Origin: a virus
Lineage: Duplodnaviria; Caudoviricetes
Reading direction: 5' to 3' (one strand)
DNA length: 60,237 nt
IMG/VR virus record: IMGVR_UViG_3300025571_000003
Coordinates: 1 to 60,237 of that record
A program made the position numbers and the translations under genes. Under the pieces are notes generated by a model that saw only the letters and a program-made list of their open reading frames with translations, did no database searches and was not told where the DNA came from. Below, one piece after another: positions 17,288 to 57,185 of the stretch; the first letter of the stretch is position 1; each line of letters opens with the position of its first letter.

Positions 17288-17372
17288 TATTAAATCAATA
17301 TCATAAAAATCGACATATATAATATTCGTTGAACGCTATAATTCCTTGAATTTACGTCAATTACGTAGAGTT

Positions 17373-17590
17373 GGAGGCTCGACAGGTCCTAGAAGGTGTC
17401 GTCGAACCTGTCGAGTTTCGCTGACGGCGGTGTCGATCTCGTTCTAATCGACGATCAGATGGACCCGTGTGCGAATGACACGGGCCACGGGTCTGATGTC
17501 CTCTTGAGACAAGCACAGCCAGGCTGTGTTGTGTCATTGAGGTCGCAAGCTACCACCGAGAATAGAGCGAGGTCGATGGCGTTTTCGTCC
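17373..17590 (+). ncRNA. candidate structured intergenic RNA
   Basis: 10-bp hairpin CTCGACAGGT/ACCTGTCGAG. A 15-bp stem (17432-17446/17563-17577, 3 G-U pairs valid only on +) encloses two further hairpins. Confidence 0.35.
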
Positions 17591-17635
17591 TGGGTGACAC
17601 AGAAGCACAGAGAAGCTCCCGAATATCGCCTATAA

Positions 17636-22014: not shown

Positions 22015-22323
22015 TCAGCTCCATCTCAGCTTGAACGCCAGGGAGTCCTCGTAGTTGCGGAACGCCCAGACAGGGCTTGCGGCTGTCCATGCAAACGGAC
22101 CGCTGCAATGATCCCGACACCAGCGATTGATCACCACAACAGCCCTCCCATCTGGGTACTCTGAAGCAATGTCGTACCAGTTGGGAAGAAACACGTGGTG
22201 AAGCCCTTCGTCGTTGGTGTGCTCATCGCTGTATAGGAACGAGCCGTGCACGTCCGGCTGGTAGAAACCCGGAGGTGGGTCGTAGGCATCCGGGACCGTA
22301 AGATCGGAGAGTTTGCTTGGCAT
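22015..22323 (-). CDS. hypothetical protein, paralog of the C-half of 21372-22013
   Basis: GGAGG RBS. HGSF.Y..EH..D..L.HV.LP.W...WC...C.G.FAWT...PVWAFR.YED..AF.L.WS. Confidence 0.7.
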   Translation of the reverse strand: MPSKLSDLTVPDAYDPPPGFYQPDVHGSFLYSDEHTNDEGLHHVFLPNWYDIASEYPDGRAVVVINRWCRDHCSGPFAWTAASPVWAFRNYEDSLAFKLRWS

Positions 22324-23252: not shown

Positions 23253-23327
23253 TGGTGCTGATGAGTGGGATCGAACCACCGACCTTCCCCTTACCAAGGG
23301 GATGCACTACCACTGTGCTACATCAGC
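23253..23327 (-). tRNA. tRNA-Thr(GGT)
   Basis: GCTGATG acceptor, anticodon arm TCCCC-TTGGTAA-GGGGA, GTTCGATC T-loop, encoded CCA. Confidence 0.95.
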
Positions 23328-23334
23328 ATTACAA

Positions 23335-23409
23335 TGGTGCTGGATGAGGGATTTGAACCCCCGACCTGTCGCTTACAAGGCGACTGCACTACCGCTGTGC
23401 TAATCCAGC
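23335..23409 (-). tRNA. tRNA-Thr(TGT)
   Basis: GCTGGAT acceptor, anticodon arm GTCGC-CTTGTAA-GCGAC, GTTCAAATC T-loop, encoded CCA. Confidence 0.95.
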
Positions 23410-23535
23410 GATGAAGGTACGATACTATTTATGCTTCAACGTTTCAATATAAAAGATCAGATACCGCACGGTGAAAAGAATCGGGAAGAATAGCTTCGTG
23501 AAGCGCAGTCGGAACGGTTATACAGGACTGTTGCA

Positions 23536-24601: not shown

Positions 24602-25714
24602 TTATTTATCTTGATCCACGGGGTGCACGGGGAGAGACTGGTCTTTTTTGGGTGAGACCCGATAGACGTGTCTGACGTAGCCAAGACTGGCGTCCCCGCG
24701 CATGTGGGGAGCGATCCATCTCCGGTATTTCATTTCGCCCGTCGAGCGGTCGTAGATGGTGCGCCAGTGGCCACGCACCTCGTGCGCACGCCTGCGGATG
24801 CCGTGGGCATGCATCAGCTTGCGGTCGAGCCACTCGACCGGCCTCGTCTTGGGCGCCTTGATCCTCACGACAGAGTGGGAAAGGTAGGGGATGCGATGGT
24901 TCCGGATGGTCTGGAAGCCGCTCCGGGGCTGTACCTCGGCCTGGACTGTCGGAACATCGTTGATCACGGCCAGCAGGGTAATGAGGAACCGGGCGATGCC
25001 ACGGTTGTCTAGCAGGTAGGTTTCGAAATACCTCCGCTGGAACTCGGCGCGGTCACGCGCCTCCTTTTTCCTTGCGTGGAAATTCAGCCGATTGATTGGT
25101 TCACAGACGACCGCCAGACGGTCCTTGCACCAATCCGGAGCAATGATCCGGCCGGTCAGTCCGTCCTCTATGCCCATCGCGGCGTATTCAACGTGGCTGC
25201 GGACCGAATTGAATTCGCGGCTCAGCCGCAGGTGTCCGAGACCACCGCCAACCGGATGCTCCTCGGTTGCCTCCGGATCGACGACGATGGCGACATGACC
25301 TGGCCAGACGGCGCCATACTGGCGGGGCTGATCGTCAACGGGACGGAAGTTGATAGCCACCCAGCGGGAGGCCGACGCGCGCTCCCTGATGAAGAGGAAA
25401 CCGCTTTCTGGAGGCTCATCGAACGTCCTGGACTTGCCGAGGGCAGCAACGCGGACGCTATCGTCCAGCTCGAACCAGCATTCGTCGAAGGGAAGGCGGG
25501 CGAGGTCGATCCAGAGAGGCAGGCGCTCGATGTTCTGCGAAACCTGCACGACAAGCGACAGCATGGTGTCGTCGATGACGAAGCGCCTCGCCCGGTTGAG
25601 GACTTCCCGGTAGCGCGTGAGCTCCTTCTCAGCCTCCGAAGGAAGTCCGAGGGTCTTGGGAGGCCTGAGCGTCCAATAGTGAACTTCGTCGAAGAAGGGT
25701 TGTTCGAGTGCCAT
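24602..25714 (-). CDS. hypothetical phage protein with H.VRGHWR...WI.PH.RG C-terminal motif
   Basis: 370 aa, GAGGGG RBS. Confidence 0.75.
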   Translation of the reverse strand: MALEQPFFDEVHYWTLRPPKTLGLPSEAEKELTRYREVLNRARRFVIDDTMLSLVVQVSQNIERLPLWIDLARLPFDECWFELDDSVRVAALGKSRTFDEPPESGFLFIRERASASRWVAINFRPVDDQPRQYGAVWPGHVAIVVDPEATEEHPVGGGLGHLRLSREFNSVRSHVEYAAMGIEDGLTGRIIAPDWCKDRLAVVCEPINRLNFHARKKEARDRAEFQRRYFETYLLDNRGIARFLITLLAVINDVPTVQAEVQPRSGFQTIRNHRIPYLSHSVVRIKAPKTRPVEWLDRKLMHAHGIRRRAHEVRGHWRTIYDRSTGEMKYRRWIAPHMRGDASLGYVRHVYRVSPKKDQSLPVHPVDQDK

Positions 25715-25735
25715 GCCCCTCTCTTAGCCGACCGT

Positions 25736-26269
25736 TCACCCGTGTCTAGGGGCAACCTGGTTCGGGGACTTCTCAAACCGGCTTGCGTCACGCTCCCTGA
25801 CGAAAAGGCCGACCGCATAACAGTGGCTCCAGGCGCAGACTATAGCAATCATCCCAAAGAAGTTGGAAGCGGTGTTATCGCTGAGGTAAGCGCAGACGGC
25901 GAGTACAAGAAACCAGGAAACCAAGACGCGGATCATAGAGTTCCGATCGCTATGATATGCCGAGGCCTGCGCATTCAGAGCGATGAACTTTCCGGACTGG
26001 TGAAGGCGATTGTCTATCCGGAGGTGGATGAACATCTGGATCGCCATGAAGATAGTGCCCACGAAATAGATCGCGGCGAGGGCGACGAAGCCACTATTGC
26101 CTTCGAGATAATAGTGATACAGCGTCGCGAACGCGATGGCGATGTACATGAACGAGAACATCGCCCGCCAGTCACCGATAAGAATGTTCCATCGGTCGTA
26201 GACGTAATCGTAGATAGACTGGGCGTATCTGAAAATCAAATCGTCAAAAGCGATAATATAATTCATCAT
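25736..26269 (-). CDS. membrane protein (about 4 TM helices)
   Basis: Four hydrophobic stretches. TTGACG-17-CATATA promoter upstream (about 26330). Confidence 0.7.
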   Translation of the reverse strand: MMNYIIAFDDLIFRYAQSIYDYVYDRWNILIGDWRAMFSFMYIAIAFATLYHYYLEGNSGFVALAAIYFVGTIFMAIQMFIHLRIDNRLHQSGKFIALNAQASAYHSDRNSMIRVLVSWFLVLAVCAYLSDNTASNFFGMIAIVCAWSHCYAVGLFVRERDASRFEKSPNQVAPRHG

Positions 26270-26385
26270 GATAGCGATATAAAGAGGTTACACTGTAATC
26301 ATATATGCCAAAGGCCGCTTCTTCCGTCAAGGATTTGCTTGAGAGCCCACGTTCGGAACCCGTTTGACGCTGAATTTGTTGCGGG

Positions 26386-26685
26386 TCAGATGCACCGCCA
26401 GTTCAACCTGGTCGCAAACAGGTCTGCATCACTTCCGAGCAGCACGCAATGATACACCACGTTCGGCGTGGACTGCTTCCTGTACCAGTTCGTCCAGATC
26501 ACAGCCTGCTCCAGGTTCTCCTCCGCCCAAGACAGGAACGTTCTCAGCGTATCGACCACTATCAATCCGTCAATAATGAGCGTCGTTCCGAGCTTGGCGT
26601 CGATGCGGGCCTGCATTTCGTCTCTGCGATACCGCAGCCAATCAAACAGATAGTGCCTGCGGTAGTCGTTGAGAGTGTACAGCAC
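26386..26685 (-). CDS. hypothetical protein
   Basis: TAGTG overlap with the upstream ORF. Confidence 0.55.
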   Translation of the reverse strand: MLYTLNDYRRHYLFDWLRYRRDEMQARIDAKLGTTLIIDGLIVVDTLRTFLSWAEENLEQAVIWTNWYRKQSTPNVVYHCVLLGSDADLFATRLNWRCI

Positions 26686-26873
26686 TATTTTCTCACCGTG
26701 GCGCGAATACGCTCAGCGGCGCGCGATACACTGTGCTCCTTGATGCACGCCTCCCGGAAATCATTATAATCGCAAAGCCGAAGTACGCCCTCATTTACGA
26801 GGCGCCTGAACTCGCATCGGATGGAGTGTTCCAGCGAGACGGCCGGATCAGACAAATGTGTACGAATGGTCAT
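26685..26873 (-). CDS. hypothetical protein
   Basis: 62-aa ORF coupled to the next gene. Confidence 0.5.
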   Translation of the reverse strand: MTIRTHLSDPAVSLEHSIRCEFRRLVNEGVLRLCDYNDFREACIKEHSVSRAAERIRATVRK

Positions 26874-26946
26874 CAGGCTACCCCAAAGAATGAGAATTCA
26901 GACAAATTTATCCGTTAACTATCGCTGAAAGTACTCGAAAGTGTAG

Positions 26947-26975
26947 TTGAAGAGGCCCCACCCTGATCGTACAAT
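26947..26975 (+). promoter_or_regulatory. sigma70-type promoter for the small RNA
   Basis: TTGAAG-17 nt-TACAAT. Confidence 0.65.
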
Positions 26976-26978
26976 TTA

Positions 26979-27062
26979 GGTCTATGGGGACGAGACCCCA
27001 GACCCCAAGGCTTGGGGCGGCCATTCGTTTCCACCCCCTCCGCCATGGCCGCCCCGCTTTTT
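26979..27062 (+). ncRNA. candidate small RNA, two hairpins, C-rich anti-SD loop, U-tail
   Basis: Promoter, hairpin GGTC..TGGGG/CCCCAGACC, 11-bp stem GGGGCGGCCAT/ATGGCCGCCCC with loop TCGTTTCCACCCCCTCCGCC, then TTTTT. Confidence 0.6.
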
Positions 27063-27943
27063 CACCTGTATTTCTCGATCAGCAGTTCCAGGTCGCGCAG
27101 AAGCGCCTCGTTCCCTCGGTTCTTGGCGATAACCTTGTCGAGTGACCCGTAGTGGTGCTCCAGGCACCGCAAGAGCAAGTCCTTCACGATCTGCTCGTCA
27201 GGCCTTTCCCGAAGAGTCGAGCGCACATAAATATCCTCAAGTTGACGCTCCTTCTCGCTCGCCCAGGCTTGAAGATGTTCTAGTGTCCATTCTCCGCGCC
27301 GGATCGCCTTCAGAACCTCCCGGTCACGCTCCAGATCGAGATCATGGGTCGTCATAATCTGCTCAGCTTCGAGCAGAAGGCGAACGCAGTGGTAAGCAAA
27401 TTTCGTGTCGTATCCATGCTTTTCTATATCAGCGGCCCTCGAATTTGAGGGGTTTCGCTTGTTGACGATTTTCGACATCTGCGCGTGTGCGTAAGCGCGC
27501 ATCTTGTAATGGCAAGCTTTAGACAAAAAGAGCTTTCGGTTTTCCCGCACAATCTCAGCGACAGGTGTCGAATGCACAACGCAGCGTCGAGGTGTGAAAA
27601 GCGAGTCTATCAGGTTCGGGTTGTTTTCCAGACACAGGTGGAAAAACTTCACTATACTGTATACAACGAAGTCATATAGCTGATTTGAATCGGGCGATTG
27701 GACTCTGTGCTCCTGCCACTGCTCAAAACGCGGAATTTGTCGCCCAAATCCCGGAATCTCTCCTCGCAGATGGGGGAAGACCATATCGAGAGGAGGCATG
27801 GCGAAACCATACAGGTCCATATCCGAACTGTCTGAGGACACGCCATATGCCATCGACCCCATGATCGTCAGGTAGACGGTATTATTGGGAAGCCATGCAG
27901 GGGGATGAATTGCCCGCGCTTTCTGCAACTTTTGAAGTAACAT
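27062..27943 (-). CDS. Pol-beta-like nucleotidyltransferase (RlaP/YcgL-type)
   Basis: GS.AYG....SD.D.YG, NNPN.ID.LF, YDTK.AYH.VRLL, L.AIRRG motifs. Confidence 0.85.
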   Translation of the reverse strand: MLLQKLQKARAIHPPAWLPNNTVYLTIMGSMAYGVSSDSSDMDLYGFAMPPLDMVFPHLRGEIPGFGRQIPRFEQWQEHRVQSPDSNQLYDFVVYSIVKFFHLCLENNPNLIDSLFTPRRCVVHSTPVAEIVRENRKLFLSKACHYKMRAYAHAQMSKIVNKRNPSNSRAADIEKHGYDTKFAYHCVRLLLEAEQIMTTHDLDLERDREVLKAIRRGEWTLEHLQAWASEKERQLEDIYVRSTLRERPDEQIVKDLLLRCLEHHYGSLDKVIAKNRGNEALLRDLELLIEKYR

Positions 27944-28061
27944 ATGAATTTTCACTCCAATATATGCTATCGTACCAGCGCTCGAAATAATTGCAATAAT
28001 TTCATCTGCGATGTGCGTACCTAAGGCAGTTTCAACAAAGCTCGTAAGAACGCTGAAGACA

Positions 28062-28607
28062 ATGGACCCCGAGACGCCGGTTACCGTATTCACGGTGCAA
28101 AGCCCCGCCGCGCTGAGGTGTGCCGAGAGCCTCGGTTACTGGCACGGAAGCCGTGACTTTATCGAGGATGAGGACTTCCGGGATGCATACCTCTGGATGC
28201 GGGACCAGATGGCAGAACGAATTTCATTTTTCAGCGGCGACTACCCGATCTGGGCAACGCTGCATCGGCCAAATTTCCGCAAACTGCGGAAGTGGGCCGA
28301 ACCCCAGGTTCTCGTGAAGGCGAGGGTTCCTCGTGGGCGCATCCTGCTGTCGGACTATGACGACTGGCACAGTGTGCTCAACCGGTTCATCGCGACCCAC
28401 GACGAGAAAGAGGCGGATCAGTGGTGGGAGCTCCCCGAGACGGAGAAGCTTGCCAACCTCCACTGGGAGCGCATCCTTGACCTCGACTGGGTTATTGAAA
28501 ACGGAAGGAAGCCGCGCCTACAGGCTTGTGTGGACCGCATCTATGCACATGAGGTCGAGCGCATCACCTTCGTCAACGGCCGCCGCAGGTACTGTCACGC
28601 AGCCTGA
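28062..28607 (+). CDS. DUF3841-like protein
   Basis: TVQ, F..AY.WM..QM..R, YPIWA, LLSDY..WH.VLN, W.RI.D, LQA motifs. Confidence 0.7.
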   Translation: MDPETPVTVFTVQSPAALRCAESLGYWHGSRDFIEDEDFRDAYLWMRDQMAERISFFSGDYPIWATLHRPNFRKLRKWAEPQVLVKARVPRGRILLSDYDDWHSVLNRFIATHDEKEADQWWELPETEKLANLHWERILDLDWVIENGRKPRLQACVDRIYAHEVERITFVNGRRRYCHAA

Positions 28608-29109: not shown

Positions 29110-30072
29110 AAAAAAGAGCGCCGAGCAGTTCTGTCGGAGGAGCGTCAAAGTTCAGAGAACTGATACCAGCCTGAGATTACAGCTGGTGCAGCCGGGCTTC
29201 CGGAGGTATCCCGCCACTTGCGGTGGGGGTTTTCCGGGCATCCACGAGACGGGCGTGACCCTCGCCTCGTACCCAACCAGTGTCGCCGTTCTGCTCCTCT
29301 TGCGAGAAGCACGAGTGGCAGGTCTCGTGTCACCGTATGCTACTCGACGGTTCCGACGCCACCGACCTTGCGGGCCGTTCGCAGGAGCTACCCCGCTATG
29401 ACACCTTCTCCATCAACATCGGATCGGCTTGCGGCCTCCCCAATGTCCCGGTTCTCTAGCGAGCCGGGAATTAGACACCTTTCACACACGGCCGGGGCAG
29501 ACTTTGCGTTTTTCAAGTGATATTATAGTGCAACAGCCACATAACGAACAAACCTACCGAGACGCGCTGCCCCCGTTGCTCCATCCTCCTTTCGGAGGAC
29601 GAAATACAACACGCCTCATGTCTTTCTCCTTGCGGGATACTCGACGGATATTTCGGACGCTTCCCCCATCAGGGACCGCGCCCTCATATCTGTCACGCTG
29701 CACTTGGCTGCGGGCCTCGCACTACGTGACCACCCGTTGACCATACGTCTATTGTGGGTTCGCATGCTGGTGCCCGGTTGCGAGACGGGCTTCGCGGTGC
29801 CCCCGCTTATCTGCTGCCAACAGACCAACACCCACCGTTCGACCTATCTCCCTCATCGGAAGACCCCTGGTGGCTCAGGGGAGGTCCGAGCCTCCGTGGA
29901 TGCACCATCCGAGGATGGCGGGGCTATGTAGGCTTCACCCCTTTGACGCGAGTTGCCTCGCGCTGCGCTGACGACGCCACGGCGCCAAACACGCTCGATC
30001 CAATCGGATGCATATGCATTCAACGGGACCGAAACTCGACGATCATCAGAGGGCGGCGCCCTCATCGATCAT
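29110..30072 (-). ncRNA. giant ornate noncoding RNA, GOLLD-like (about 960 nt)
   Basis: No credible ORF. Many GCAA/GAAA tetraloop hairpins on -. Own promoter. Terminal ACCAGC-TGTAATCTCAG-GCTGGT hairpin. 9-bp 5'-3' complementarity. U7 tract at the end. Confidence 0.8.
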
Positions 30073-30078
30073 GTAGAC

Positions 30079-30107
30079 ACAGTATCCAAACTCGCTTCCG
30101 ATGTCAA
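30079..30107 (-). promoter_or_regulatory. sigma70 promoter of the giant RNA
   Basis: TTGACA-17 nt-TACTGT on the minus strand. Confidence 0.75.
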
Positions 30108-31752: not shown

Positions 31753-31833
31753 GTCCGTTGATCATAAAGACCGGACATATTTATCAGCCAGATATGATTT
31801 GGCCTGCGGCAGGTGCCGCAGGCCTCTTGGACA

Positions 31834-42800: not shown

Positions 42801-42852
42801 GATCGTTGGAGAACACAAAGAAAGAGGGGCGGCCAAGGCCGCCCCTGAACAG

Positions 42853-43110
42853 TCAAAGGCGACCAGTCGCCTCAAGGATCGTCTCGACCGCCTGGACCTT
42901 CTCGACCTCTTCGTGGATGTTCGCCTTGTAGGCGTGCCGGAGGGTCTTCATCAGCAGGGAAGGTTTCACATCGAGGTGCTCGGCAAGCTCAGAAGCAAGG
43001 TCCTTCAGGCTGCCCTTCAGGTCGTCGATCTCCTGAAGCGTCTTGATACCCGCATCCATGAACTCGGTGAGCTTGGTCTTGTCGGCGGTCGAGAGATGTT
43101 CAAAAGACAT
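42853..43110 (-). CDS. small DNA-binding protein (T4 DsbA/GapR-like)
   Basis: EI.DL...LKD....LAE..D.KP..L.K..R.AYK pattern. Followed by a hairpin at 42821-42846. Confidence 0.6.
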   Translation of the reverse strand: MSFEHLSTADKTKLTEFMDAGIKTLQEIDDLKGSLKDLASELAEHLDVKPSLLMKTLRHAYKANIHEEVEKVQAVETILEATGRL

Positions 43111-47674: not shown

Positions 47675-47725
47675 GAAGCAGTAAACCTTAATATTTCGAT
47701 TATTTATGCACCGTGAGACCTGCTG

Positions 47726-47757
47726 AAAAAGAAAAGGCGGCCCGAAGGCCGCCCCTT
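47726..47757 (-). terminator. rho-independent terminator
   Basis: GGCGG-CCTTCGGG-CCGCC then TTTTCTTTTT on the minus strand. Confidence 0.7.
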
Positions 47758-51807: not shown

Positions 51808-54800
51808 TCACCACTTGAAGATGATGGCGCAATGAGCACGCTGGCCGAGACCGGCCCCCGCTCCGGTGTCCTCCATACGGAGCTGGATTGTGTAGTCCGT
51901 GAACTCCGTCATAAAGGTCGGGTTGTCGGCCGTGCCTCCACCAGAGAACTTCGTGGTGGCAAAAAGACCAGTCACGACGTTCTTGTAGATGAACTGGTTC
52001 GTCTGGTAGTGCTGGCCCATGACAGCAATGGAGGACGGCGGACGCGTCTTGCCCGTGAAGTTGAACTTCACGATGCAGTTGTCGCCATCGAGGACTTCGA
52101 CTTCGACGCCAGGAGTCTTCGACTTGACATTGTCTCCGCTGCTGAAGTTGCCGGACGCTCCAGGAGAGTAACGGAAGACGACGATTTCCTCGTTGGAGTC
52201 GCCACCAGGGATGTTGACGGTCGCCACCCCGCTCTCGTTCGTGACGGTCACACCGGGACCGGTGAAGTTGATGGCTGTTGGAGCCGCAACGACCTGGGTG
52301 CCGTCCTTCTCGACCGGGGTGGAAGCGCCACCGGAGCCACCGGCAGCCGCGATGGTGATCTCATCGGCGGTCTCGGAGATCGTAACGTTGGCACCTGCCC
52401 GGATCGTCTTGAACCGGAGATCGGCACCCACCTTCTCGGAGAAGACATGACCCTCGCCGGAACCGACGTTGGACGCCGTGGTGGTCTCGCCAGCCTCGGG
52501 GGCGTCGATCCAGGCGAATCCAGTACCGGTTTCATTCATCGCCATGACCTGGCCCGCCAAACCAAGGGGGATGGCATCCTGCTTGGTGGAGAGAGCCGAG
52601 GTCAGCTCGGGATGCGTCACAAAGTCAGAGTCGTCCACCAGATCACTGATGGCGCCGGGGATCATCGGCTTGTCCGTGAGGTCGTTGTACGAGCCGCTTG
52701 TGGCAACCGGCGCAAGACCAGTGATGTCCGAGGCCGAGGCCTGTTCGCCAGCGATCACGCGGCCGTGGGCATCGACCATGACCTTGCTGTAGCTACCAGC
52801 CGACACGCCGGTCTCTGACAGGGCGATAGAGAATGTGCCGCTCTCGGTGACCGGCGAGCCCGTGATGACGAAGTCGCTCGTGCCGACAAGACCGACAGAG
52901 GTGACCGTGCCAGAGCCACCACCGCTGACCGGGGCGCCGTTCGACGCCGAGGTGATGCGGCCGAACTCGTCAACCGTGATGGTGGCATAGGAGTAGGTTC
53001 CGGCGACGACGCCAGTTTCCTCAAGTTCGGTGTTGATCTGAACGTCCTGCGAGCCATCGAACGTGACGGAGCCAGACACTGGACCGGCGAGCGTGATGGT
53101 GTGGGCCGTCGTGAGCTTTTCGGCCTCGCTCGCCGTGCCAGCCAGTTTGCCGTAGAAGGTGTCAGCCTCCACGTCACCGAGGACGAGCGAGCCTTCCTCT
53201 CCCACGTATGAGCCCCAGCGGTTGTTGTTCGTATTGTAGAACCAGTTGGCGGTAAGGCTCTCAGTCGGAACCTGCATACCGATGAAATCGGTCTCCTCGC
53301 CGGTGACAGTCAGAAGACCGTTGACGACCGTATCGTCGTTGAAGGTCTTCTTGCCGTTGACAATCTGATCCGTTGTCAGATCGACGTAGTCATTTGGCAT
53401 GATCGGCTTGTTGATGAGGTCGTTGTAATCACCCGAGAACGCGATATCTGCGAAGTTGAGCTTCTCTCCAGCGGTGACACGACCCTTGGCATCAACCACA
53501 ACCGAATTGTACTCGCCGGGGACAACGCCGGTGTCGGTCAGCGCCAGGCCAATTGTGCCGTTCTCTGTGATAGGCGAACCTGTGACCTCGATGTCGGCTG
53601 ACCCCTCGACAGCGATAGAGGTGACCGTGCCCGCACCAGCCGTGTTGCTGGAAATGGCCGTAACGCGTCCCGTCTCATCGACAGTGACAGTCGCATAGTG
53701 ATACTCACCGGGTGTGACGCCGGAGGCACTGGCCTTGATCCTGATCTGGTCGGCTTCCTCAGTGATGTCGATGCCGTCTCCAGCAACGAGGCTGCGCAGC
53801 TTGATCTCGCCCGCTTCAGTCTCCTTGTAGACGCCAGCACCGGAGCCGACGTTGACGAAAACGTCCGAGGTGGCCGTCCCGGTGGACGCAGCGATGACGC
53901 GACCATGGGCATCGACCGTGATGGTCGCATTCGTGTAGGTACCAGCCGCGACTCCGGTCTCGTCGAGCGAGACCGTCACAACATCGGTTCCCTGCGTGAC
54001 GACAACGCCGTTGTTGCCGTCGATCGAGCGGAAGTTGAACTCTTCGCCGGTCTTGTCGCGATAGACGTGGGCACCCGAGCCGACGTTCTTGGCTGTGACC
54101 GGGCTGGAGGAGATTGCGGTGATACGACCGAACTCATCGACTGTGACAACCGCAGACGAATAGGTACCAGCGCTGACGCCGGTCGTTTCGAGGCCGATCA
54201 CGAACTGGCCGCTATCGACAATCGGGCCACCGGATACGGTAATGCCGTTTTCACCGACAGCATCGACCATCGTAACCGTGCCGTTGCCAGGCTGAGAGGC
54301 ACCGGGGACAAGGCCAACGATGCGACCGAACTCGTCGATGGTGATGGAGGCAGGCGAGTAGCTACCAGCCGTGACACCAGACGGGGCAAGGGCAACGTTC
54401 ACGACACCGCCATCGGTCGTGACGGCGATACCTTCGCCAGCCTCGATCGCAGTGATGGCGTCAGAGCTGATCACGACCTCGTCCGTACCCTGGGTGACAG
54501 TGACGGCACCCTCGCCACGGAGGCTGCGGACCTGGAGCGTGGTTCCGACCTTTCCCTTGTAGATGCTCGCGCCGGTGCCGACCGAGGACAGTGTGTTGGC
54601 CTCTCCGAGCACGTTCGAGGTGATCGAGGTGATACGACCGGTCGAGTCAACGAAGATGGTCGGAGCCGTGTAGGTACCTGGGGTGATACCAGTATCTGAC
54701 AGGCGGACAATGAATTCACCGGTGGAGGTGATCGGGCCACCGGTCGCGATGATGCCGTTCTGACCGCTGATGCCGATGCTGGTGACGGCGTTGCCGCTCA

Positions 54801-57147
54801 GAATGATCTCGTTGTCATTGGAGGTGACGGTGACAACGCCCGAGCCACGGATGCTCTTGAAGCGGAGACCGTCGCCCAGCACGTCCTTGAACACGCCATG
54901 ACCGGCGCCGAGGTTGATACCGCCAGAGACAGTTGAGCCGCTGAGACCGATGGTGACGTTGTCGTTGCCGTCGGTCGTGACCGAGAACTTGTCGTCGAAT
55001 GTGATCGACTTCACGCTCTCCGAAACCGCGTTGATGGCGTGAGCCGAAAAGATGGCCGGGTTGAGAGCCGTGATGACGACCTCATCGACTTCTTCGCCCT
55101 GCGCAACTGTCGCATTCGACACCTTGATGGTGTTCACGCCTTCGATGGACGTGGAGCCATCAGTGACAGCGAGCCTCGACGGAGGATCGATAGTGATGAC
55201 GGCACCGCCATTTGGGGCCTCCTCGACCGTCGCACCCACGATGTCGAGGTAGTTGACCTCTGTGGCGACTTCCGTGCCATTCGAGAGAACCGAGAGAGGC
55301 GAGGGGACCTCGATGTCGATGGAGACGCGACCGGCTCCATCAACGGTCAGGCTGCCATTGGTGAAGGTGATCTCGCGGGCAGACGCCAGGGCGCCGTCCT
55401 TGTCGCGGACCCGCATCTCAGGGATGTTGACCACCGCCTTGCGGTCGTCTCCATCCGGGTGGGTGACATCAACGTTGCCGGTGAAGACGAAGTCCTTGGC
55501 GTTCTGGACGACAGCGCCGTTCTCGTCATGGACGGCAATGGGGTCTGCGACGCCAGGCGCCAGCGAAATATCGACTGTCCCGGCGACGGCAGAGTTGACC
55601 GCGAACTGGTTGCCGAAGCGGATTTCGGCCGTGCCATTGAACTGCTGCGGGACATCGACGTTGTCCTCGTTGAAGCCGGACACGGAGAGAGGCGAAGTAG
55701 CCTCGATGGTGATGGTGTTGTCGTCCTCGGTGATGGTGATGTTGTCACCGGCGACGATGGAGCGGAACTCAAGAACGTCACCCGTCTTGCCAGCGTAGAC
55801 TCCCGCGCCGTTGCCCAGGTTGTTGCCCGTGTTGACCTCGCCTACCGAGCCGTTCGAGGCGGCAATAATGCGGCCCTGCTCGTCAACAGTGATGGTGGCA
55901 GCGGTGTAGGTTCCGGCGACAACACCAGTGTCGCTCAAGGAAATGTCGAACGTACCGGAGTTGGTTATCGGGCCGCCCGTGACGACGACACCCTTGCTAC
56001 CAACGGCGTTCACGCTGGACACATATGGCGTGGACGAGATGACCACCTCACTCGGGGTCGAGGTGATCTGGATGCCACCAGAGCCGACAATGGTTTTGAA
56101 GCGAAGATCGGTTCCTTCCTTGCGGGCGAAGAGACCTTCGCCGATGCCGATATTGGACGCGGTATTGGCCTCACCCCACGGCTCCATCGAGGCGGCGACG
56201 ACACGGCCGAACTCGTCAACCTGCACGAAGTTGTAGGAACCGGCGGCAACGCCGGTCGGCGCAAGGGCAATGTTGTAGGAGCCGGACGAAGTAATGGGCG
56301 TTCCTGACAGGGAGATACCTGGACCTGCCGTCAGCTCGACATGTGTGACTGCATCGGCGCGGATGGTGATCTCGTCATCTGTCGAGGAAATCGTGGCGAC
56401 ACCCTCGGCCTTGATCGTCTTGAACTGGAAATCAACTCCGTCCTTCTTGGCGAAGACGGGCTCTCCGTCGCCGAGGTTGGAGGCAGTATTCGTCTCGCCG
56501 ACCGGAGTGGACGAGGCAGAGGTGATACGACCCGTGGAATCAACGGTGATCGTCGCGGCGGTGTAGGTACCGGGAGTGACGCCAGTATCGATGAGCGAGA
56601 CCGTGACGGTTCCGGTCTCGGTGATCGGGGCGCCGGTGGCGAGGATTCCGTTCTCACCGACGACATTGACGGAACGGACCGTACCCTGGGAGATCGTCCG
56701 CCACTCCAGGTTCACGCCGTTAAAGACGAGTACGGAGTTCTGGACGGTCGGGGCATAGAGGAACTCAAGACGGCCGTCATGGGTACCCATGAGCAGGCCA
56801 TTTCCGACGATGCGATCCGGCGCCTCGGAGAGTTGCAGGAAAGACATCGTCTGGGTGTTGGAATTAGAGATGATGGTGATCGTATCGAGGTCCTCGATGA
56901 ACTCGATACCAGGACCGGCGATAAGCGAGCGGAACTCCAGAACCACGTCCGAAGAGCCGTTGACGCCGGAATAGAGACCAGAGCCCGTGCCGATATTGCG
57001 ACCCTGCACGGTCATGACACCGTATTGCGGCTGCGTCGTAGTGGAGGACTGACCCGACCCAGCGACAACGCCGGTGTTGATCTCCTCTCCCTTGAGGTAA
57101 ACCTTACCTGTTCCTTCCTGGACGCGCCCGTTCTCAATGCTTGGCAT
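51808..57147 (-). CDS. giant repetitive fibre protein (about 1780 aa)
   Basis: 11 copies of (T/S)G(V/I)..G.Y....(V/I)D..GR and about 9 copies of N.G.G..(F/Y)....L.F(K/R)(S/T)I. TAAATA at 57175. Confidence 0.85.
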   Translation of the reverse strand: MPSIENGRVQEGTGKVYLKGEEINTGVVAGSGQSSTTTQPQYGVMTVQGRNIGTGSGLYSGVNGSSDVVLEFRSLIAGPGIEFIEDLDTITIISNSNTQTMSFLQLSEAPDRIVGNGLLMGTHDGRLEFLYAPTVQNSVLVFNGVNLEWRTISQGTVRSVNVVGENGILATGAPITETGTVTVSLIDTGVTPGTYTAATITVDSTGRITSASSTPVGETNTASNLGDGEPVFAKKDGVDFQFKTIKAEGVATISSTDDEITIRADAVTHVELTAGPGISLSGTPITSSGSYNIALAPTGVAAGSYNFVQVDEFGRVVAASMEPWGEANTASNIGIGEGLFARKEGTDLRFKTIVGSGGIQITSTPSEVVISSTPYVSSVNAVGSKGVVVTGGPITNSGTFDISLSDTGVVAGTYTAATITVDEQGRIIAASNGSVGEVNTGNNLGNGAGVYAGKTGDVLEFRSIVAGDNITITEDDNTITIEATSPLSVSGFNEDNVDVPQQFNGTAEIRFGNQFAVNSAVAGTVDISLAPGVADPIAVHDENGAVVQNAKDFVFTGNVDVTHPDGDDRKAVVNIPEMRVRDKDGALASAREITFTNGSLTVDGAGRVSIDIEVPSPLSVLSNGTEVATEVNYLDIVGATVEEAPNGGAVITIDPPSRLAVTDGSTSIEGVNTIKVSNATVAQGEEVDEVVITALNPAIFSAHAINAVSESVKSITFDDKFSVTTDGNDNVTIGLSGSTVSGGINLGAGHGVFKDVLGDGLRFKSIRGSGVVTVTSNDNEIILSGNAVTSIGISGQNGIIATGGPITSTGEFIVRLSDTGITPGTYTAPTIFVDSTGRITSITSNVLGEANTLSSVGTGASIYKGKVGTTLQVRSLRGEGAVTVTQGTDEVVISSDAITAIEAGEGIAVTTDGGVVNVALAPSGVTAGSYSPASITIDEFGRIVGLVPGASQPGNGTVTMVDAVGENGITVSGGPIVDSGQFVIGLETTGVSAGTYSSAVVTVDEFGRITAISSSPVTAKNVGSGAHVYRDKTGEEFNFRSIDGNNGVVVTQGTDVVTVSLDETGVAAGTYTNATITVDAHGRVIAASTGTATSDVFVNVGSGAGVYKETEAGEIKLRSLVAGDGIDITEEADQIRIKASASGVTPGEYHYATVTVDETGRVTAISSNTAGAGTVTSIAVEGSADIEVTGSPITENGTIGLALTDTGVVPGEYNSVVVDAKGRVTAGEKLNFADIAFSGDYNDLINKPIMPNDYVDLTTDQIVNGKKTFNDDTVVNGLLTVTGEETDFIGMQVPTESLTANWFYNTNNNRWGSYVGEEGSLVLGDVEADTFYGKLAGTASEAEKLTTAHTITLAGPVSGSVTFDGSQDVQINTELEETGVVAGTYSYATITVDEFGRITSASNGAPVSGGGSGTVTSVGLVGTSDFVITGSPVTESGTFSIALSETGVSAGSYSKVMVDAHGRVIAGEQASASDITGLAPVATSGSYNDLTDKPMIPGAISDLVDDSDFVTHPELTSALSTKQDAIPLGLAGQVMAMNETGTGFAWIDAPEAGETTTASNVGSGEGHVFSEKVGADLRFKTIRAGANVTISETADEITIAAAGGSGGASTPVEKDGTQVVAAPTAINFTGPGVTVTNESGVATVNIPGGDSNEEIVVFRYSPGASGNFSSGDNVKSKTPGVEVEVLDGDNCIVKFNFTGKTRPPSSIAVMGQHYQTNQFIYKNVVTGLFATTKFSGGGTADNPTFMTEFTDYTIQLRMEDTGAGAGLGQRAHCAIIFKW

Positions 57148-57185
57148 AGCAATCACCCCAAAAATAGTTTGAGGTATTTATCGGG

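Follow-up and report, generated by a model that had tools for sequence, protein, structure and literature searches.

Genomic context of the locus

The window analyzed in this work is the whole of one IMG/VR virus record (60,237 bases), which is estimated to be 16% complete and encodes a T4-type portal protein and a Gp23 capsid protein. In its capsid protein, the virus shares 78% identity with Sinorhizobium phage Phosso (469 kb) and 67% with Agrobacterium phage Atu_ph07, and based on these identities it is a jumbo phage, probably of Rhizobiales. The region of interest is a 188-nt spacer between two minus-strand genes, which harbors a putative small transcription unit on the plus strand. The spacer and its surroundings are composed of the following:

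26685-26873, minus strand: orf62, a conserved small protein of 62 aa, with a homologue that follows the NTase in L010
26874-27061: spacer of 188 nt, from the NTase stop to the orf62 start; a lineage-specific insertion
26906-26911, minus strand: T4-late-type motif ATAAAT, 33 nt before the orf62 ATG (6/7 match to ATAAATA)
27062-28093, minus strand: RlaP-family nucleotidyltransferase (NTase; PF10127, E = 4.4e-21; phrog_388, E = 2.2e-49)

The true start of the NTase is likely the ATG at 27943, because the homologue in L010, the locus of the nearest other relative, begins at the residue matching this position. A promoter-like TTGCAA-16-TACGAT is found upstream of the gene on the minus strand. Relatives of the NTase are present at eight loci in viral contigs (one 100% identical, seven 50-64% identical) and at 39 metagenome loci (45-65%), and no match at E <= 0.001 was found in Phosso and Atu_ph07. 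The codon statistics of the gene are atypical (third-position GC of 0.58), a self-trained codon model did not pick it, and a match in Rhizobium phage RHph_I1_18 is annotated beside a Seg-like homing endonuclease. The gene may be mobile among jumbo phages.

The small protein orf62 matches no family. We regard it as a real gene because its stop overlaps the start of the next gene (orf99, 26386-26685) and because a homologue lies behind the NTase in L010. In that locus, where the NTase is 61% identical, 12 nt separate the NTase stop from the orf62 homologue, compared to the gap of 188 nt in the window, and the pair of genes ends with an ordinary terminator. Judged from this comparison, the spacer is an insertion relative to L010 and specific to this phage lineage. 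Neither the stem described below nor a CCTCC loop was found downstream of the NTase in any of the 30 relatives that have at least 120 nt of downstream flank; the flanks of five further loci were too short for this comparison.

The motif ATAAATA occurs at nine intergenic and three coding sites in the window, and seven of the nine intergenic sites are located 17-32 nt before a start codon on the same strand. Based on this distribution, it looks like the T4-type late promoter of this phage; examples are found at 2931, 21340, 31778, 47701, 57175 (-), and 58628 (+). Two adjacent tRNA-Thr genes (GGT and TGT anticodons; 23253-23409, minus strand) also have an ATAAATA 17 nt upstream, at 23426-23432. 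Since ATAAAT is found at the usual distance upstream of orf62, this gene appears to have a late-type promoter of its own inside the spacer.

An inverted repeat joins the orf62 start region, including the ATG (26862-26886), to the hairpin arm and first loop bases of the unit described below (27012-27028), with arms matching at 8/8 and 9/11 positions. The predicted minimum-energy fold does not contain this long-range pairing, and the repeat may have been left by an inverted duplication from which the spacer arose.

Anatomy of the plus-strand unit

The unit occupies positions 26947-27062 and has these parts:

26947-26952, plus strand: -35 hexamer TTGAAG, separated from the -10 hexamer by a 17-nt spacer
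26970-26975, plus strand: -10 hexamer TACAAT, forming a sigma-70-like pair with TTGAAG (9/12 consensus matches)
26982-27062, plus strand: predicted RNA of about 80 nt, with its start placed 5-9 nt past the -10 hexamer
26985-26989 pairing with 26996-27000, plus strand: 5' hairpin of the predicted fold (5 bp, 6-nt loop)
27014-27024 pairing with 27045-27055 (27014-27055 as a whole), plus strand: perfect GC-rich stem of 11 bp, with 9 GC pairs (-22.5 kcal/mol)
27025-27044, plus strand: 20-nt C-rich loop TCGTTTCCACCCCCTCCGCC, which contains CCCCCTCC with CCTCC inside
27058-27062, plus strand: T5 run, separated from the 11-bp stem by GC

The distance from promoter to hairpin is 39 nt, a second C4 run is located in the linker, and on the opposite strand the NTase stop codon begins at the position of the last T of the T5 run. 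No ORF is contained within the unit. The only plus-strand ORF at this position (26984-27145) continues past the terminator and scores very low as coding sequence (3.1), and the plus-strand ORFs throughout the surrounding stretch are shadows. A preliminary description of this DNA had listed a promoter, a 5' hairpin, an 11-bp stem with a 20-nt loop, and a U5 end as parts of one mini transcription unit on the plus strand between two minus-strand genes, with a transcript of about 80 nt that lacks an ORF. Our examination recovered every one of these parts, and the coding score and the flanking genes bear out the absence of an ORF and the setting, respectively. The anatomy and orientation of the unit are thus confirmed, and the element is an orphan.

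Orientation of the hairpin

The stem core GGCGGCC...GGCCGCC is present in three copies in the window, compared to none in 100 shuffles. The two other copies are as follows:

42825-42846: sister stem, a tetraloop terminator behind a minus-strand gene, with the U-rich tail on the minus strand
47736-47753: sister stem, a tetraloop terminator behind a minus-strand gene, with the U-rich tail on the minus strand

One of these two sister terminators is followed by ATAAATA and the next gene (47701-47755). The copy in the unit is turned round, with the T-run on the plus strand and a loop of 20 nt instead of a tetraloop. Its hairpin is therefore a flipped member of the phage's own terminator stem family.

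To place this orientation among other gene ends, we surveyed the hairpins behind minus-strand genes that have a perfect stem of at least 7 bp with at least 5 GC and lie within 25 nt of the stop codon (n = 8). Six of the eight have at least 4 A in the preceding 9 nt, which corresponds to a U-rich tail on the minus strand, and one (at 31801) has a tail on neither strand. The hairpin at 27014-27055 is the only one with a T-run on the plus strand (5 T in the 9 nt after the stem, compared to 2 A in the 9 nt before it). With just 2 A before the stem, a minus-strand transcript would lack a U tail behind the hairpin. The combination of a GC-rich stem and a U-run that characterizes intrinsic terminators is thus found on the plus strand and not on the minus strand. 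The loop of 20 nt is outside the short range of such terminators (3-8 nt) and is unusual for an efficient one; a terminator scan restricted to loops of 3-8 nt does not list this hairpin. Both flanking genes are on the minus strand, and the predicted 80-nt RNA is the only plus-strand unit upstream of the hairpin. The preliminary description had named a hairpin that acts merely as the minus-strand terminator of the NTase as the case that would speak against a small RNA; a U-run that serves the plus strand does not favor that case.

Fold and promoter compared to chance

The plus-strand RNA (26982-27062) has a predicted fold of -34.8 kcal/mol (z = -2.74), which was equaled by 5 of 200 shuffles. 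For the minus strand of the element the z-score is -0.97 (33 of 200 shuffles equally good), and a second estimate gave -1.02.

Four promoter-like sites were found in 3 kb, compared to 1.7 +/- 1.5 expected, and a single 9/12 site is not significant alone because this count is within chance for a region of this size. The relaxed motif TTGA[AC][AG]-N16-18-TA[CT]..T has seven matches in the window, five of which, including the site of the unit, fall in intergenic DNA (14% of the window). TTGAC and an A/T-rich tract upstream are found at most of the other intergenic sigma-70-like sites. The site of the unit has neither, and its -35 hexamer TTGAAG is weak; its promoter would consequently be the weakest of the intergenic set. 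In the related phage PA5oct, host RNA polymerase is described as being used with TTGAC/TATAATA promoters (account in PMC7318152).

Natural variants and RNA libraries

Over 7029 aligned positions, the near-identical contig L002 has 22 differences from the window, four of which are located within 27013-27038 (binomial P = 8.6e-6). They consist of an additional G (27013), T>G at 27025, and N at 27034 and 27038, the last being an ambiguous base within CCTCC. Three other N positions of L002 coincide with sites that are variable in the RNA runs, which suggests that the Ns of this contig mark polymorphism. A 1312-nt contig from the RNA run X16 has eight differences from the window, five of them in the element: a deletion of one base at 26956, +G at 27013, T>G at 27025, +A at 27032, and C>T at 27044. 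The promoter spacer in X16 is 16 nt, and both hexamers are unchanged in L002 and X16.

In total, seven sites vary in the 188-nt spacer, and five of the seven are inside the 20-nt loop (binomial P = 2.4e-4). The stem arms, the 5' hairpin, the two hexamers, the T-run, and the late motif are invariant in all three variants. The loop-closing pair 27025/27044 is U.C in the window, G-C in L002 (which extends the stem to 12 bp), and G.U in X16. Within the element, conservation is lowest in the loop.

Six RNA runs contain at least part of this phage, which is also present in the DNA runs X1-X14; the four RNA runs that were compared consist of unstranded contigs. Over 25000-28400, the contigs have a depth of 2-18. 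At the element, X15 contigs end at 26970 and start at 26997, an X17 contig starts at 27039, and one X16 contig spans it. Because these contigs are unstranded and lack transcript ends, they count neither for nor against an 80-nt plus-strand RNA.

Searches for relatives of the element

An Rfam 15 scan of 26000-28000 at E <= 10 returned three hits, all to C/D-box snoRNA families and none overlapping the element. At the gathering threshold, a scan of the whole window found only GOLLD and two tRNAs, and nothing at the element. Searches of phages by megablast and blastn gave no match or matches at chance level; for the spacer, 11 records were returned, all with E >= 2 and covering at most 18% of the query. 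The exact 42-nt hairpin is absent from the viral contigs searched, and within the window only the stem core of the spacer block recurs. When the flanking genes orf99 and orf370 were used as queries, only the near-identical L002 contig was found.

A covariance model (R1) was built from the window and L002. It had no hits at E <= 10 in five related viral (jumbo-phage) records and none in Atu_ph07, and its sole hit in Phosso (14.5 bits, E = 0.5) is inside a topoisomerase CDS. In the window itself, the second-best hit is just the sister terminator at 42819-42875. A gapped pattern of the stem matched the L002 contig, one other viral locus, and 13 loci in bacteria of unrelated phyla. Further complementary segments are present in the interiors of 12 of the 13 bacterial loci and of the second viral locus. 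Since none of these bacterial loci and the second viral locus shares the loop of the unit, they were rejected as homologues and are regarded as generic terminators. A CRISPR-repeat mimic, a tRNA-like RNA, and a Y-RNA-like RNA were also considered, and nothing supports any of them.

A candidate cis-antisense RNA

We tentatively favor the explanation that the element is a unit for a cis-antisense small RNA of the lambda OOP kind, although we hold it at less than even confidence. The course of events that we infer from the parts at the locus would be as follows. A spacer of 188 nt, probably regulatory, was inserted into the NTase-orf62 pair of an uncultured T4-like jumbo phage whose closest named relatives have Sinorhizobium and Agrobacterium as hosts, with a copy of the terminator stem turned round so that its U-run serves the plus strand, and with a large loop in place of the tetraloop. 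The sigma-70-like promoter and the flipped hairpin would then most likely give rise to a plus-strand RNA of about 80 nt early in infection. Because minus-strand transcripts gain no U tail from the hairpin, those of the NTase are expected to read through it, and the plus-strand RNA would match the 3' end and the intercistronic part of such a read-through transcript with perfect complementarity. The two complementary 20-nt loops could nucleate the pairing of sense and antisense RNAs, and the resulting duplex would expose the read-through transcript to cleavage. In consequence, orf62 and the genes behind it would be expressed only from their own late-type promoter in the spacer.

Several lines of evidence are consistent with this proposal. 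Among the eight gene-end hairpins, only this one has its T-run on the plus strand, and its stem core is common to two standard terminators. The promoter motif family is concentrated in intergenic DNA, and orf62 has a late-type motif of its own. The spacer is an insertion compared to L010, and the fold is better than shuffles on the plus strand (z = -2.74) and not on the minus strand (-0.97). Moreover, the structural parts are invariant while the loop varies. A variable loop fits a cis-antisense pair because both strands change together, such that complementarity is kept.

Other observations weigh against it. The plus-strand RNA is read from sequence, and the RNA contigs over the element are unstranded and of depth 2-18. 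The -35 hexamer is weak, there is no A/T-rich tract upstream, and one 9/12 site is within chance. The element has no homologue in any relative searched, and hence gains no support from covariation or conservation. The overlap with the NTase coding region is confined to the stop codon, and the ribosome-binding site of orf62 lies outside the RNA. Finally, a 20-nt loop is unusual for an efficient terminator.

Among the closest known systems are lambda OOP and P22 sar RNA, which are phage cis-antisense small RNAs (roles as given in the account of PMC5415839). The arrangement of the unit is of their type, with promoter, hairpin, and U-run all on the plus strand and set as near as they can be to the end of a convergent gene. 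Like them, the unit has a putative promoter and intrinsic terminator of its own, is located between co-oriented genes, and would be antisense to the end or intercistronic part of the mRNA of a neighboring gene; the promoter and terminator opposed to the flanking genes and the transcript overlap are all found, at the level of sequence. However, the unit has no sequence relation to these RNAs, overlaps a coding region only at a stop codon, has loops of 20 nt, and is predicted from sequence. For comparison, OOP is reportedly about 77 nt long and overlaps the 3' end of cII.

If the plus-strand RNA is real, a T4-like jumbo phage with hosts among soil or bioreactor bacteria would have an OOP-style antisense RNA. 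One of the phage's own terminators would have been flipped to build it, and it would keep a late gene block apart from upstream early transcription. It would then be an example of phages building regulatory RNAs from existing parts, and not a new principle.

Alternative explanations

It is possible, if rather doubtful, that no plus-strand RNA exists and that the hairpin serves the minus-strand NTase mRNA alone, where it would stabilize the 3' end, mark a processing site, or terminate weakly, with the late promoter of orf62 next in line; the plus-strand hexamers would then be chance. On the minus strand, the order of stop codon, GGGGCGGCC hairpin, ATAAAT, and ATG is indeed the same as at 47701-47755, and some relatives also have a hairpin directly behind the NTase (L005-L007 and L009/L047). 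That a single 9/12 promoter site is within chance and lacks the A/T tract of the other sites agrees with this explanation, as does the free variation of the loop, which fits a purely structural hairpin. Yet the minus strand has no U tail, unlike six of the seven other gene-end hairpins, the T5 run is on the plus strand, and the minus-strand fold is no better than shuffles (z = -0.97 and -1.02). An action on the minus strand only also leaves unexplained the 20-nt loop and the approximately 100 nt between the hairpin and the late motif.

We consider it unlikely that the spacer is a by-product, without selected function, of cassette shuffling or inverted duplication between terminator stem-loops. 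Recombination of this type is associated with PeSL (promoter-early stem-loop) cassettes, in which a stem-loop lies just upstream of a sigma-70-like promoter, and the next gene comes after it with its Shine-Dalgarno sequence and start codon (as PMC4122927 outlines them). In T4-type phages, such conserved promoter/stem-loop cassettes are linked to indels (treated in PMC4122927 and PMC2839356), and host-type promoters are reported to adjoin stem-loops in such phages (PMC4122927 and, for PA5oct, PMC7318152). The insertion relative to L010, the three palindromic copies of the stem core, the fast variation of the loop, and the inverted repeat between the orf62 start region and the hairpin arm are all in line with such an origin. 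The unit may share with PeSL and with the conserved-stem terminators of T4-type and Rak2-like jumbo phages the reuse of a GC-rich stem at several intergenic sites and the association with an indel between relatives. Three copies of the stem core and an insertion relative to L010 are seen, and the remainder of the block occurs once in a record that represents 16% of the genome.

The order of promoter and stem-loop on the plus strand is the reverse of that in PeSL, with the promoter before the stem-loop and no gene after it, the loop has 20 nt instead of 4, and the U-run is opposed to the flanking genes. On the minus strand, where the stem-loop does come first, the motif approximately 100 nt after it is of the late type and not of the early type. 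No second copy of the block beyond the stem core is found in the window. In addition, none of the three variants has a change in the stem, the T-run, the hexamers, or the 5' hairpin, which speaks against a spacer that is free of function.

The preliminary description had read the unit as an early trans-acting phage small RNA, the C-rich loop of which pairs with the GGAGG sites of host or phage mRNAs and blocks their translation. This reading now appears improbable. In its favor, an unpaired loop is predicted that has CCTCC within CCCCCTCC, the linker contains a further C4 run, and the probable host group is Rhizobiales (given the capsid protein 78% identical to that of Phosso). The CcsR/cuckoo and AbcR families have conserved, repeated anti-Shine-Dalgarno motifs in their loops, and pairing with many mRNAs that depends on Hfq is another of their features. 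Small RNAs with C-rich loops are also established regulators, such as 6C (as summarized in PMC6486639) and sX13 (as summarized in PMC3771888). The unit resembles the RNAs of this kind (CcsR/cuckoo, AbcR, 6C, and sX13) in being short, ending with a terminator, and presenting an unpaired C-rich motif that would be able to pair with G-rich ribosome-binding sites. It differs from them in being phage-encoded, in the absence of a covariance-model match and of homologues, and in the variability of its loop; instead of a conserved and repeated motif, it has a single CCTCC. The preliminary description had pointed to AbcR and CcsR/cuckoo as RNAs of this kind; the Rfam covariance scan, with these families included, returned no relevant hits at E <= 10.

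The best site in the window, GGCGGAGG before the gene at 22015-22323, reaches -17.3 kcal/mol. However, the duplex energy of the loop with the 56 start regions of the window averages -8.16 kcal/mol, compared to -8.59 kcal/mol for 2000 random internal coding 31-mers, such that pairing with phage start regions is no stronger than with random coding sequence. Three start regions are at or below -17 kcal/mol; they fall within the lowest 5% of the control (5% quantile of -15.7 kcal/mol), and this is approximately the number expected by chance. An SD-like 4-mer is present in only 24 of the 56 start regions, which were crudely defined. Furthermore, the loop is the least conserved part, with five of the seven variable sites, and L002 has an N at 27038 inside CCTCC. 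This variability speaks against a trans-acting seed because such a seed should be the best conserved part. With no excess of pairing at phage starts, and with the most variable part of the element as the proposed seed, the silencing of mRNAs through GGAGG was not borne out. A CCTCC in a hairpin loop of a GC-rich genome should thus be treated with caution, as it is not by itself a sign of an anti-Shine-Dalgarno regulator.

A variant of this idea, which we consider highly improbable, holds that an early RNA of about 80 nt uses a fast-evolving loop to track the G-rich ribosome-binding regions of the host and brings about an RNA-based shut-off of translation. The loop would then vary because it follows host targets, and not because it is unconstrained.

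A minus-strand gene for a 38-aa protein (27024-26908), for example a type I toxin checked by the plus-strand antisense RNA, is barely conceivable and was rejected: a GGAGG in the hairpin loop does lie 12 nt before its ATG (which is in the stem) on the minus strand, and the plus-strand RNA would cover its start region, but in X16 the +1 indel at 27013 and the -1 indel at 26956 shift the frame over approximately 19 codons and yield an unrelated, hydrophilic middle, and the peptide has no clear membrane helix and no homologue at any locus except in the same phage.

Other features of the window

A GOLLD RNA (RF02032) was identified at 29168-29617 on the minus strand, in an ORF-poor stretch (181.1 bits compared to a gathering threshold of 150, E = 2.5e-49), and it probably extends to approximately 30070. 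A sigma-70-like TTGACA-17-TACTGT is located beside it at 30079-30107 (minus strand). From 28001/28450 to past 29000, the RNA contigs have a depth of approximately 145-150, compared to 2-18 in the rest of the stretch compared, and by arithmetic the X16 contig ends near 30062. A DUF3841 gene (PF12952, E = 7e-16; 28011-28607, plus strand), divergent from the NTase, lies within this high-depth X16 contig. The tRNA-Thr pair, the RlaP-family NTase, and the GOLLD RNA form an RNA-centered region of the phage.

Large-loop hairpins are also found elsewhere in the window. A 348-nt gap between minus-strand genes (17288-17635) contains two of them, one at 17378-17415 (10-bp stem and 18-nt loop, followed by TTTCG) and the other at 17462-17493, together with a sigma-70-like site at 17333-17360 (minus strand). 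Lastly, an ORF of 1782 aa (51808-57156, minus strand) adjoins tail-fibre-like genes and has several families of internal repeats of approximately 95 nt; it probably encodes a repetitive fibre or decoration protein.
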